IMG/VR virus record: IMGVR_UViG_3300025121_000002
Span: 1-64,000 of that record
Reading direction: 5' to 3' (one strand)
DNA from: a virus
DNA length: 64,000 nucleotides
The notes under the pieces are model-generated. The model made no database searches. It worked only from the letters and a program-made list of their open reading frames with translations, and had not been told where the DNA came from. Below are positions 16,305-64,000 of the stretch, piece after piece; the stretch's first letter is position 1, and each line of letters starts with the position of its first letter. The position numbers and the translations under genes are program-made.

Positions 16305-18077
16305 ATGTTATACAAAATACTTAAAAGTGAATACCAAGACTTCCTAGACTATCTTAAAGACACTTCAATCAAATCATTTACAGAAAATTCAATACTTACG
16401 TTAGATAATAACGAATACATATTTGAAGACATATCACAGTTTAATGAATTAAAGAATCCTAAAAAGAAAGATAACTCACAATTAAATGATACAACTATGT
16501 ATAACAAGTGTCAATTAAATGACACAACTGATATAACTACGTCGATTGATAAAGATTTAATCTATGGTAAAGATCCAACTGAACGTATTGTTAATATATC
16601 TATCGATGATAATTTGGTATATATCTATAGAGAATTAGAAGATGGTACAATAGATACTCAGGTTAAACAAGCTAACTACTGGATTATTGGTGCATCTAAG
16701 CCTGCTGGTAAGTATATTACTTTAGAAGGAAGTCAACCATATAAATACTTAAAAGAATATTCAGACTATGAAGATTATAAAGTAGCTAGAATTAACTGTT
16801 ATAAGAAGAAGTCTGATGTATATTCTATATCTAATTTAGTTGAAAGTTACATGGTTAGAAATGGTTATACATATTTTAAGGGAATGAAGATTAGTGAAGT
16901 TTCTGTACTTTCGTTTGATATTGAAACTACAGGATTAGATCCAAAGCTTGATGATGCTAGAGTGTTACTGATTTCCAATACTTATAGGAATAACAAAGGT
17001 GTGATAACTAGGAAGTTGTTTAGTTTAGATGACTATGAGAATGATGCTGAGATGATCGAGGATTGGTGTTCTTGGGTGAGGAAAATGAATGCTAGTATAT
17101 TACTAGGTCACAATATTTTTTCTTTTGACCTACCTTATTTAAACCATCGTGGAGGAGGGTTAGAACTAGGAAGAGATGATAGTTACTTAACTTTCGAAGA
17201 AAGACCATCGAATCTAAGAGTTGATGGTAGTCAACAGTATACTTATTTTAAGGTACATATACAAGGAAGGGAATTGCTGGATACTTGGTTTTTATCGATA
17301 AAGTATGATATACAACGAAAGTATCCTAATTATAAACTAAAAGATATTATAGAATTTGAAGGATTAACACAAAAAGACAGACAGTTTTATGATGCTAGTA
17401 AAATAAAAGATAATTGGCATCTTCCAGAAGAAAGAGTTAAGATTAAGGCGTACTGTATAAGTGATAGTGACGATAGTTTAAAATTGTTCGATTTAATGGG
17501 ACCATCTTTTTTTTACTTTACAATTCACTGTCCTAAACCTTTTCAATTAATGTTGGAAAGCGCCTCTGGATCACAAATCAATAGTATGATGGTTAGAAGT
17601 TATTTACAAATTAATAAATCATTACCAAAAACCACAGAACTATCCCCAGTACAAGGTGCCATAAGTTTCGGACTGCCTAAATTTAGATGCAACGTGTTAA
17701 AATTAGATTTTTCTGGGCTTTACCCCTCAATAATACGAACTTGGCAATTATATGATCCAATAAAAGATCCAAATAGAAATTTCCTAAAGTTAACCGATTA
17801 TTTTGCTGAAGAAAGATTAAAACATAAGAAAATAGCAAAAGATACTGATGATAAATACTATAAAGATTTGGAACAAATGGAAAAACAGACAGCAAATTCA
17901 ATGTATGGTATGTTGAATTGTCAAGGATTATTATTCAATAATAGTTTAATCGCTGGTGAAATAACAAGAAATGCTAGAGAATTATTAAATAAAATAACAC
18001 TATTTTTTACATCAATTGATATAAATAAATGGAAGGAAAAATTAGATACTGAATCCGAAGAAGTTGAAAATGAGTAG
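16305..18077 (+). CDS. family B DNA polymerase, N-terminal fragment (3'-5' exonuclease plus palm motifs A and B)
   Basis: ExoI FDIETTGL, ExoII LLGHNIFSFDLPYL, ExoIII YCISDSDDS, motif A DFSGLYPSII, motif B K.TANSMYG. ORF ends at TAG 18075-18077, before motif C. Confidence 0.85.
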   Translation: MLYKILKSEYQDFLDYLKDTSIKSFTENSILTLDNNEYIFEDISQFNELKNPKKKDNSQLNDTTMYNKCQLNDTTDITTSIDKDLIYGKDPTERIVNISIDDNLVYIYRELEDGTIDTQVKQANYWIIGASKPAGKYITLEGSQPYKYLKEYSDYEDYKVARINCYKKKSDVYSISNLVESYMVRNGYTYFKGMKISEVSVLSFDIETTGLDPKLDDARVLLISNTYRNNKGVITRKLFSLDDYENDAEMIEDWCSWVRKMNASILLGHNIFSFDLPYLNHRGGGLELGRDDSYLTFEERPSNLRVDGSQQYTYFKVHIQGRELLDTWFLSIKYDIQRKYPNYKLKDIIEFEGLTQKDRQFYDASKIKDNWHLPEERVKIKAYCISDSDDSLKLFDLMGPSFFYFTIHCPKPFQLMLESASGSQINSMMVRSYLQINKSLPKTTELSPVQGAISFGLPKFRCNVLKLDFSGLYPSIIRTWQLYDPIKDPNRNFLKLTDYFAEERLKHKKIAKDTDDKYYKDLEQMEKQTANSMYGMLNCQGLLFNNSLIAGEITRNARELLNKITLFFTSIDINKWKEKLDTESEEVENE

Positions 18078-18109
18078 GTATTAATAATCAAATATATGGT
18101 GGTATCATT

Positions 18110-59107: not shown

Positions 59108-59636
59108 TTATATCCTATTCCCTTTTTTCATATTTTCTATAGCAGGAAGATATTGTAAATTCCAAGGAACATGTAGTCCAGTAATATTTTTACCTTTTAT
59201 CGGTATTATATGATCAACATGATATCCTTTTGGACAATTTTTATATATTAATTTTAATTCTTCTTTTTGTTCTTTTGTTATCCATTTTGGTTGAACTTTT
59301 TTGTTTCTTCTACTATTTTCTCTTACTTTTGCTCTAGAATTATCTATATCTAAATAATATTCTCTTTTAGAACGTTCTCTACTTTTTTGATGTGTTAATT
59401 CTAAATCTTCATAATAATATTTTTTTTGCATTAATTCTTCCTAATTCGCATATTCTATCTTTATTTTTTCTATAATATTTTCTTCTTCTAGAATTAACGT
59501 TGTCTTTTGTTTCTCTTATTCTATCTATTTTACATTTTCTACAATATGAACTTCTTCCAGATTTTTTTGCTCTATCAATACAAAAATCTTCTATATTTTT
59601 TTCTTGTTTACATTTAGGACAGAACTTAGTTGTCAT
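59108..59636 (-). pseudogene. Zn-finger/HNH endonuclease split by a frameshift at an A8 tract
   Basis: ORF 59409..59636 (CPKCK..CRKCK) and ORF 59108..59431 (YHVDHIIPIKG...NLQYLPAIENMKKGN) overlap at AAAAAAAA (59420-59427). A7 would fuse them. Confidence 0.7.
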
Positions 59637-62337: not shown

Positions 62338-64000
62338 TCATCTACGACGCTTAACTGTGAAAATGTCACGAATACTCTGTTGAACGTCCGTAAGTTGTTG
62401 TTTTTGTTTAGGAGAGTAGAATCCACCTTTAGGTAAATCGTAATCTTTAGGGTATGGATTTTTATGATAGTTGATGTTACGTATCAAATAAATCAATGCA
62501 TCTAAACAGTCAAAATGTGAACCATCAGCAGCTTTCTCATATTTAGTTCTTGCTTTATTCCAAGTAGCATTCATTAAATGAAATATTAGGTTTATACATC
62601 TAGGATTTATCTTTAGTTTTTTACCAGAAACTTTCATACGTAAAGCGTTTATTTGTGCGTTTTTATCATCTTTTCTAGTTGGTATAAACGATAAGTTGTG
62701 TAAGTTATTAAAGTCTACGATAATTTGCCAACTAGTATCACATATCCTTGACTCTGGTAATTTGTCACCCCAAAGCATCTTTTCCTTTAATTTAATAGCA
62801 TCAGCCATATCAATAGTTGTATATTCTTTACCATTGAATACTAATTCATCTTCAACAACAATTTCATCATTTCTAAAATCATAATACGCAAACAAAAAAG
62901 CTGTCCAATCTAGTATACCAAAGTCACCAGAAGTATAACATGTATAGTGTGCTGGTCGTTTCCATGTTTGTATTATGTCTTTCATTTTTTCATCAGTAGC
63001 TTCTGGTATAACTAATGAATTTGTGTCAGCTAATAATTTACATAAGTATTCTCTTTTAAAATCTATAGAATCTTTACCACCAACAGCATTAGCCATTTCT
63101 TCTATTTCATATCCTTTAAATCTAGGACAATCATATATAGTTCTTCTGGTATATGCTTTTTTATAGTCAGCTTCTTTAATATATTTATTAAATGTATGTG
63201 CTGCTGAAGATGGTGGAGTTGAAATCATGATTGTTAATCTACGCTTAGACGTATTCATAGTTGGAAATAATACAGATTTATAATAGTAGTCAAATTCAGA
63301 TGAATCCATAAATCCACACTCATCCATGAATACCCTATCAAATCTTTGACCTCTAGCATTTTCAATATTACCAGAGTCTGTACCAATACAATGAATTTCA
63401 GAACCATTATCAAATACGAATACGTTTTCTTGAGTATTAAATTTAGGTCTTAATTCTTTAGGACAATCTATACATATTTCATTGAAACGAGATTTAATTA
63501 ATTTTCTAGCTTGATTCTGTCTAGGTAAAACGTAAGCTATTTTAAAGTTGGGATTACGAATACATTCTTCGATTGCTAATAAAGAAATTAGGAAAGAGTT
63601 ATGAGTTACCAATCCATCACCAGTAAGATATAAATGTGTATCATTATCAACAGTAATATCCCAACATTGTTCCATTCTTCTATTTTCTTTTCTAACACTA
63701 ACAGAATCTGTCACACCATTTACAACAGTTACTATTTTATCATACTCATTAAAATCTTTTAGTGGTTTCTCCAAAAGATTACCTTCACCATTTTTAACTA
63801 ACCAGTAATGTTCATCAGTACAACCAGCTAAAACTTTACCATTACCAACTAAATCAAATACTTCTTCAACACCACAATCTATTTTATCAACAACTTTAGT
63901 TGGACTTACACTACCGTCTTTATTATATCCATAAATAATATCACCAATATTAATATCTTTGATTAACTTTGGTCCAGTTTCTGTGATGACGTAAGTACTT
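62338..64000 (-). CDS. terL: terminase large subunit (5' end outside window) containing an intein
   Basis: Frame is open to the window edge; the track's start at 63774 is an internal TTG. C-extein has Walker B VFMDECGF and a C-terminal nuclease-like domain (SGDFGILDWTAF..). Confidence 0.75.
   Translation of the reverse strand, partial: STYVITETGPKLIKDINIGDIIYGYNKDGSVSPTKVVDKIDCGVEEVFDLVGNGKVLAGCTDEHYWLVKNGEGNLLEKPLKDFNEYDKIVTVVNGVTDSVSVRKENRRMEQCWDITVDNDTHLYLTGDGLVTHNSFLISLLAIEECIRNPNFKIAYVLPRQNQARKLIKSRFNEICIDCPKELRPKFNTQENVFVFDNGSEIHCIGTDSGNIENARGQRFDRVFMDECGFMDSSEFDYYYKSVLFPTMNTSKRRLTIMISTPPSSAAHTFNKYIKEADYKKAYTRRTIYDCPRFKGYEIEEMANAVGGKDSIDFKREYLCKLLADTNSLVIPEATDEKMKDIIQTWKRPAHYTCYTSGDFGILDWTAFLFAYYDFRNDEIVVEDELVFNGKEYTTIDMADAIKLKEKMLWGDKLPESRICDTSWQIIVDFNNLHNLSFIPTRKDDKNAQINALRMKVSGKKLKINPRCINLIFHLMNATWNKARTKYEKAADGSHFDCLDALIYLIRNINYHKNPYPKDYDLPKGGFYSPKQKQQLTDVQQSIRDIFTVKRRR
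63598..64000 (-). mobile_element. mini-intein (Hint domain) within terL, N-terminal junction outside window
   Basis: VITETGPKLIKDINIGDIIYG, GCTDEHYW (TxxH), CWDITVDNDTHLYL, GDGLVTHN followed by Ser (63597-63595). Confidence 0.75.

Follow-up and report, generated by a model that had tools for sequence, protein, structure and literature searches.

A probable class-1 mini-intein in the Walker A motif of the large terminase subunit of an uncultivated phage

The 64,000-nucleotide stretch studied here (positions 1 to 64,000 of the IMG/VR virus record IMGVR_UViG_3300025121_000002; the whole stretch is called the window below) breaks off on its minus strand within a gene for the large terminase subunit TerL. 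An original prediction, made from the sequence alone, had placed a mini-intein in the part of this gene that borders the window edge. This raises the question of whether the segment is an intein, where it starts and ends, and whether it could be removed to leave an intact packaging ATPase. We conclude that the element is very probably a class-1 mini-intein of 138 amino acids (aa) which lies in frame in the P-loop of the only TerL found, is spliced out and is derived from a larger intein by deletion of the nuclease.

Translation of the minus strand gave 553 codons at 62338..63999 with a single stop, the terminal one. The uninterrupted frame proposed from the window edge through the open reading frame (ORF) 62338..63774 was thus present, and the peptides named for it occur in the proposed order: VITETGPKLIKDINIGDIIYG, GCTDEHYW, CWDITVDNDTHLYL and GDGLVTHN/S, followed by FLISLLAIEE (slashes mark splice junctions throughout). 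With the composition of the window (29% G+C, stop probability 0.083 per codon) the chance of 134 open codons is about 1e-5. An independent 478-aa gene starting with TTG at 63774 was considered and rejected, since the frame runs upstream through the intein into the N-extein; this ORF is an artefact of the window edge. Position 63598, the predicted limit, is the exact end of the last intein codon (Asn138, AAC, 63600..63598), and the codon of the +1 Ser (TCT) occupies 63597..63595. The window holds exactly 134 intein residues and, ending at base 64000, misses the first four (S-I-N-S) as well as the N-extein.

The missing part was obtained from public data. A protein collection search yielded a 657-aa protein (P0001) that is 100% identical to the window fragment over the whole length of the fragment. 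It is encoded by contig L001 (ENA ERZ27254805 k141_188679, 69.9 kb), which shows 0 mismatches to the window over 7663 overlapping nucleotides (nt). Window base 64000 corresponds to base 6312 of L001, and the complete TerL gene would occupy 64311..62338 in window numbering; the window lacks no more than 11 nt of the insert, besides the 100-aa N-extein. The junction in L001 reads AAG/TCA ATA AAT TCA AGT ACT, which gives ...S-R-Q-T-G-K/S-I-N-S-S-T-Y-V..., and the whole insert comprises 414 nt, AAG(K)/TCA(S1)...AAC(N138)/TCT(S+1). The nucleophile Ser1 (TCA) is located 9-11 nt past the window edge, directly after Lys100. Upstream of the window there is thus the N-extein of a terminase with the P-loop SRQTGK at its end and, next to it, the splice junction at Ser1, as the original prediction had anticipated.

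The insert is situated between the Lys and the Ser of the Walker A motif, SRQTGK/S1...H137-N138/S+1, or K100/S101...N238/S239 in the numbering of P0001. Of the best 120 homologues 94 (about 475 aa each) lack an intein and have an uninterrupted [SG]R[QR]xGK[ST][YFW]xxxxxA[IV]E across the site. At least 13 further homologues of this set carry an insert at the same site, which starts with Cys and ends with THN followed by Ser or Thr; because these relatives start and end in this way, the boundaries could be fixed as given. At the site the sequence is GRQLGK-TYLICIIAIEEC in P0002 (510 aa), the closest homologue without an intein, and SRQTGK-[138 aa]-SFLISLLAIEEC in the window protein; on the DNA level the empty site of P0002 is GGTAAA/ACATATCTA. 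When the 138 residues were taken out of P0001, the two proteins aligned without a gap at the junction and with 80% identity over the exteins (P0002 is otherwise given as 84%-identical). The intein-less homologues skip the region 63598-64000 exactly, by 414 nt or 138 codons. As expected of a class-1 intein, the element therefore interrupts a conserved host protein in frame, and its exteins are colinear with the homologues that lack an intein. The +1 Ser, for which a role as GK(S/T) residue of Walker A had been considered, indeed aligns with the S/T of GK[ST] in the 94 intein-less homologues.

Within about 20 residues on each side of the site the extein identity to P0002 is only 50-55% compared with 80% overall (window 63540-63597; L001 6240-6300). 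Candidate causes are co-conversion in an old homing event, co-adaptation of intein and exteins, or divergence of the target site in the empty allele.

The host protein is a terminase of the Terminase_6N/T4-like type. The C-extein matched Pfam Terminase_6N (PF03237) with 41.8 bits (cut-off 22), residues 135-516 matched phrog_2, terminase large subunit (E=9e-32), and Walker A, Walker B and a C-terminal nuclease region were found. The alignment with T4 gp17 agreed with the assignment of VFMDECGF to Walker B. Judged from the sequence, the Walker A motif SRQTGK-S would be restored by splicing. Using a hidden Markov model (HMM) of the 94 intein-less TerLs, no second TerL was detected in the 213 ORFs of the window and 6.3 kb beyond it.

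A megablast search of 50,697 phage records with the terminase region was without a match, and the genomic context was therefore taken from metagenome contigs; in cultured phages no TerL above 28% identity was found by tblastn. The identical protein is indexed in 33 contig-collection blocks, and 24 carrying contigs of up to 85 kb were read. Since it recurs across contigs of four source collections (NCBI, JGI/IMG, ENA, Logan), the phage is one in circulation. The NCBI copies HLD91124.1 and KKP53334.1 are named only 'terminase' and belong to metagenome-assembled genomes binned as Patescibacteria and TM6. An appropriate annotation would be one 657-aa terminase large subunit containing a 138-aa intein, neither split nor truncated.

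Splicing motifs and predicted fold

The catalytic set of a class-1 intein is complete in the element, consisting of Ser1, Thr65-x-x-His68, Asp118, His126, His137-Asn138 and Ser+1. In an alignment of 16 inteins of this site (A2) His68, Asp118, Thr136, His137 and Asn138 are invariant. Position 1 is occupied by Ser, with the Cys1 of relatives in the same column; block B reads T65-D-E-H68; D118 (position F:4 of block F) is aligned with the Asp of YDIGVE in DnaE inteins; and the C-terminus is formed by His-Asn followed by a nucleophile, H137-N138/S239. A class-3 intein (WCT triad), which would have Cys at F:4 and none of Cys, Ser or Thr at position 1, was rejected in view of Asp118 at F:4 and Ser at position 1, and for the same residues a class-2 mechanism was rejected as well. 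The Cys found at F:2 (Cys116) is no conserved residue; the relative P0003 has Gly.

Sequence searches pointed in the same direction. TIGR01443 (intein_Cterm) scored 20.8 bits with a curated cut-off of 15.6. In a phmmer search the element matched the DnaE intein 7qil from end to end (E=0.002). The A2 profile retrieved 23 PDB sequences at E≤0.001, all of them inteins or intein-like, among them Npu DnaE as best match (8.7e-7), Ssp DnaE, PI-SceI, gp41-1, PI-MtuI and a bacterial intein-like domain (BIL). De novo designed beta-trefoils (3q7y and relatives), the top PDB matches of the single-sequence phmmer search, were rejected as compositional or beta-hairpin repeat similarity; they vanished with the family profile and were absent from the structural matches described below. 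The Pfam matches DUF3954 and TIR_3 obtained with the fragment were at chance level.

An AlphaFold2 model computed on A2 predicted a compact all-beta structure for the 138 residues with a mean predicted local distance difference test score (pLDDT) of 95.3 and a predicted template modelling score (pTM) of 0.87. The top 50 Foldseek matches in the PDB were all HINT domains (inteins, BIL, hedgehog) with template modelling (TM) scores up to 0.84. The list was headed by the Mtu RecA mini-intein 3ifj (E=3e-8, TM 0.83, root mean square deviation 2.4 Å). With the boundaries, the catalytic positions, TIGR01443, the family profile and the HINT fold all agreeing with the predicted intein inside the large terminase, the element is almost certainly an intein.

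Nuclease loss and related inteins

The element had been described as a mini-intein without endonuclease. Neither a LAGLIDADG nor an HNH match was found in its 138 aa, whereas LAGLIDADG_3 (PF14528) was detected in 12 of the 16 inteins of A2. In comparison with these 12 inteins of the same site about 220 aa are deleted: in the relatives columns 104-334 of A2 hold both LAGLIDADG motifs, and the window intein has only Thr95-Val96-Val97 at this place. The closest relative among 1.84 billion representative proteins, of which 301 are intein relatives at E≤0.001, is the 359-aa intein of P0003, a metagenomic TerL of 898 aa (55% identity). By BLASTP, residues 1-94 of the element correspond to residues 1-95 of this intein with 50.5% identity and residues 86-138 to residues 314-359 with 60% identity. 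Both inteins share the insertion site and an unusual non-Cys context of residue 1 (T/S-INSSTYV), and their blocks F and G are nearly identical in sequence; the P0003 intein keeps both LAGLIDADG motifs (PF14528), whereas in the window intein the roughly 220 residues are reduced to TVV. This comparison shows that a LAGLIDADG homing intein of the same site gave rise to the element by deletion of the nuclease.

The G+C contents of intein (29.7%) and extein (30.6%) match, and the element is therefore a long-term resident and no recent arrival. Further mini-inteins are present in the family, in P0009 (145 aa), P0014 (132 aa) and P0032 (169 aa), giving at least four together with P0001. At both ends the P0014 intein hardly differs from the 359-aa intein of P0015, and in P0032 part of the first LAGLIDADG motif is left, 'PHAYVIGALAGDEC'. 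As there are several minis in the family, the nuclease was lost more than once, with at least two separate transitions from full intein to mini-intein in the TerL family.

LAGLIDADG inteins were also seen at two further sites of the TerL family (homologues P0031, P0083, P0086, P0112 and P0010, P0018, P0036, P0070). One site is three residues upstream in the P-loop, RR/C...HN/SGKS, and the other just before Walker B, LRG/C...THN/S-A-D-L-C-I-V-D-E-A-G-F. With three sites, full LAGLIDADG inteins, the partly deleted P0032 and the minis, the family presents the homing cycle as a compact natural series. Related inteins occur in the P-loops of other ATPases (P0124, GGGK/C...THN/T, 49% identity; P0134, NRTGK/C...THN/S, 46% identity). 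In Alishewanella phage Slicko01 the protein WGH49649.1 (L004 2108-4015), annotated as hypothetical, carries an intein-like insert NAGK/AQPLW...ILTHN/T, which starts with Ala and may be a non-class-1 intein.

Inteins in the P-loop of terminases are already known, and the window element is a further, unannotated example. TerL is the commonest intein host in mycobacteriophages, and insertion in the P-loop between the invariant Lys and Thr is the 'classic' TerL insertion; representative TerL inteins from other insertion sites were tested and splice (Kelley et al. 2016, mBio, PMC5050341). In the bacterial mobilome Terminase_6 (PF03237) is the leading intein host (Novikova et al. 2016, PMC4760082). 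Like the window intein, the mycobacteriophage P-loop inteins (site TerL1-a, PMC5050341) belong to class 1 and have to splice to rebuild the active site. The window intein differs from them by Ser1 and the lack of a nuclease. Its host is a Terminase_6N-type TerL (PF03237) of an uncultivated phage with 29% G+C, whereas the mycobacteriophage inteins in Terminase_6 proteins sit at another site (f, C-motif) (PMC5050341).

The TerL of a cultured phage, Vibrio phage vB_VchM_Kuja (QGZ16168.1, MN718199; T4-like or Terminase_6-type), likewise has an intein at GK/T, ARQSGK/CVDHDT...ILSHN/TTVVA, which is not flagged in the annotation of the record. The Kuja intein is larger and starts with Cys1, and its TerL is only about 24% identical. 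The Mtu RecA mini-intein and the Npu and Ssp DnaE inteins (PDB 3ifj, 2in0, 4kl5, 2keq) share the HINT fold (TM 0.78-0.84) and the catalytic blocks with the window intein and are close to it in size (about 137-140 aa), but are only 19-25% identical to it in sequence. In the RecA mini-intein the nuclease deletion was engineered, in the window intein it is natural, and the DnaE inteins are naturally split.

Inteins are well known to target the P-loops of ATPases and the terminases of phages; the window intein is one more such case and leaves the current understanding unchanged. As a natural mini-intein of 138 aa with Ser at both nucleophile positions it could have modest use in redox-independent protein ligation.

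Predicted splicing and its alternatives

The mechanism was deduced from the standard class-1 pathway. The 657-aa precursor would be translated with a broken ATP-binding loop and would not bind ATP. Ser1 would undergo an N-O acyl shift at Lys-1, the ester would be handed to the +1 Ser by trans-esterification, Asn138 would cyclise with the help of His137 and release the intein, and an O-N shift would seal GK-S. The result would be a 519-aa TerL with an intact P-loop, able to package DNA. The predicted masses are 75 kDa for the precursor, 59 kDa for the ligated TerL and 15.5 kDa for the free intein, and the predicted tryptic peptide of the spliced junction is SFLISLLAIEECIR, preceded by ...QTGK. 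As both nucleophiles are Ser, the chemistry would need no cysteine, and the known disulfide or redox traps could not operate. Having lost its nuclease, the element could not home by itself; it would persist because TerL stays functional only if the element is spliced out or deleted precisely.

Several points weigh against this interpretation. Residue 1 is Cys in 14 of the 16 inteins of the site, Ser in one and Thr in one. Ser is a normal class-1 nucleophile and would presumably take this role here; splicing as a whole is inferred from sequence and predicted structure. Ser1 and the N-extein were taken from the identical public contig, the copy in the window starting at residue 5, and the search for a second terminase covered the roughly 85-kb genome except for about 15 kb. 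Furthermore, the Pfam model Intein_splicing (PF14890) stayed below its gathering score (16.7-17.2 bits vs 35.8). This model had been among those proposed for checking the element. At E≤0.01 Intein_splicing matches 7 and Hint_2 matches 8 of the 16 members of A2, and the miss is due to the sensitivity of the model on a short, divergent mini-intein and not to an absent feature. Because PF14890 misses its threshold, it is TIGR01443, the family profile and the structure that carry the intein case. Since Ser1 is the minority state at the site, we rate efficient splicing lower than the identity of the element and regard it as highly likely.

We considered which alternatives could account for the insert. 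It could be derived from an intein and no longer splice, owing to the change of Cys1 to Ser or to damage by the nuclease deletion, so that TerL is dead or works with a retained HINT domain. The rarity of Ser1 (with one further non-Cys member, Thr1) and the low Pfam score would fit such a loss, and mini-inteins made by domain deletion are sometimes impaired in splicing. However, the catalytic positions are all intact and agree with the invariant columns of A2, the model is a compact HINT domain of high confidence, and no stop or frameshift has accumulated in the AT-rich genome. The identical sequence is found in many contigs from several source collections, and with 138 aa between its K and S the P-loop would be unable to bind ATP, yet no other TerL was found in the window and 6.3 kb beyond it. 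A non-splicing insert is therefore very unlikely. Still less can be said for a segment that is no intein at all, be it a lineage-specific insertion domain of the terminase or a non-splicing HINT or BIL domain. The single-sequence HMM scores are weak, and BIL and hedgehog domains are among the Foldseek matches, but BILs are not known from conserved motifs of essential enzymes. The insert sits at a catalytic motif between gap-free colinear exteins, it ends with His-Asn, the Ser nucleophile next to this end is at the same time the Walker A Ser, both halves are 50-60% identical to LAGLIDADG-bearing inteins of the same site, and TIGR01443 is above cut-off. The boundary and homology evidence already contradicts this reading, which we consider extremely improbable.

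The remaining alternative accepts a spliced intein and gives it a function. The Ser1/Ser+1 intein would be a domesticated regulator, a conditional switch gating the packaging ATPase in response to, for instance, temperature, pH, metal ions or the binding of DNA or a partner, and would be retained for this reason, with splicing timed so that TerL activity is confined to the proper stage of infection. The element would then control the packaging ATPase post-translationally and would not be a selfish element left stranded. That P-loop inteins may have a regulatory role has been discussed (PMC5050341, PMC4760082), the insertion sits in the catalytic loop, and nuclease-less inteins have persisted repeatedly (at least the four minis named above). 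On the other hand, no sensor is indicated by the sequence, and with Ser at both positions the redox and disulfide traps do not apply. That a precise deletion from an essential motif is difficult explains the persistence equally well. We therefore regard such a switch as unlikely and favour the class-1 mini-intein that is simply spliced out.

Other features of the window

The positions of the intein blocks and of the terminase parts are listed in the table.

Table. Features of the interrupted TerL gene in window coordinates
Feature	Position	Strand	Basis or remark
Mini-intein, part in the window (residues 5-138 of 138 and last base of codon 4)	63598..64000	-	Open frame; mapping to L001; Cys1 relatives and intein-less homologues for the boundaries; HINT fold
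Full mini-intein, 138 aa / 414 nt	would span 64011..63598	-	First 11 nt (Ser1-Ile-Asn-Ser4) outside the window
Block A remainder, STYVITETG, intein residues 5-13	63973..63999	-	T6, T10 and G13 conserved in the 16-intein alignment A2
Block B, Thr65-Asp-Glu-His68 (TxxH)	63808..63819	-	His68 invariant in A2; aligns with block B of DnaE inteins (TKDH)
Deletion scar, Thr95-Val96-Val97	63721..63729	-	Site of the LAGLIDADG homing-endonuclease domain (about 220 aa) of relatives
Block F, Asp118...His126 (WDITVDNDTH)	63634..63660	-	Asp118 invariant in A2; aligns with YDIGVE..DHNF of DnaE inteins
Block G and C-terminal splice junction, Gly-Leu-Val-Thr136-His137-Asn138/Ser+1	63595..63612	-	TIGR01443; T136, H137 and N138 invariant in A2
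TerL C-extein, 419 aa and stop; rest of ATPase domain and nuclease domain	62338..63597	-	Terminase_6N; phrog_2; gap-free vs P0002
Walker B, VFMDECGF	63310..63333	-	Aligns with T4 gp17 'MIYIDECAF' (PDB 3ezk); kept in all homologues inspected

The original prediction had also assumed a self-splicing intron in the capsid gene, for which no Rfam support was obtained. In the whole window (1-64000) no Rfam family reached its gathering threshold and nothing intron-like was found at E≤1, the intron models not being fully sensitive; this result is an absence of support for the capsid intron and not a disproof. The only Rfam match at E≤1, DUF805b at 18046-18080 (E=0.27), was at chance level. No tRNA genes were found in the window.

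Among the structural genes downstream of TerL two ORFs of 75 aa (59409-59636) and 107 aa (59108-59431) overlap in different frames on the minus strand (59108-59636). They match phrog_1035 'endonuclease VII'/HNH consecutively, at profile positions 61-127 and 105-213. By its sequence the locus resembles a gene for a free-standing HNH homing endonuclease that a frameshift has split.

Upstream of TerL and on the same strand L001 (1-6000) contains two small ORFs of 95 and 144 aa, neither of which has a Pfam match. The 144-aa ORF overlaps the start of TerL by 8 nt. By position the two ORFs are candidates for the small terminase subunit, and the same pair also precedes the intein-less TerL in contig L002.

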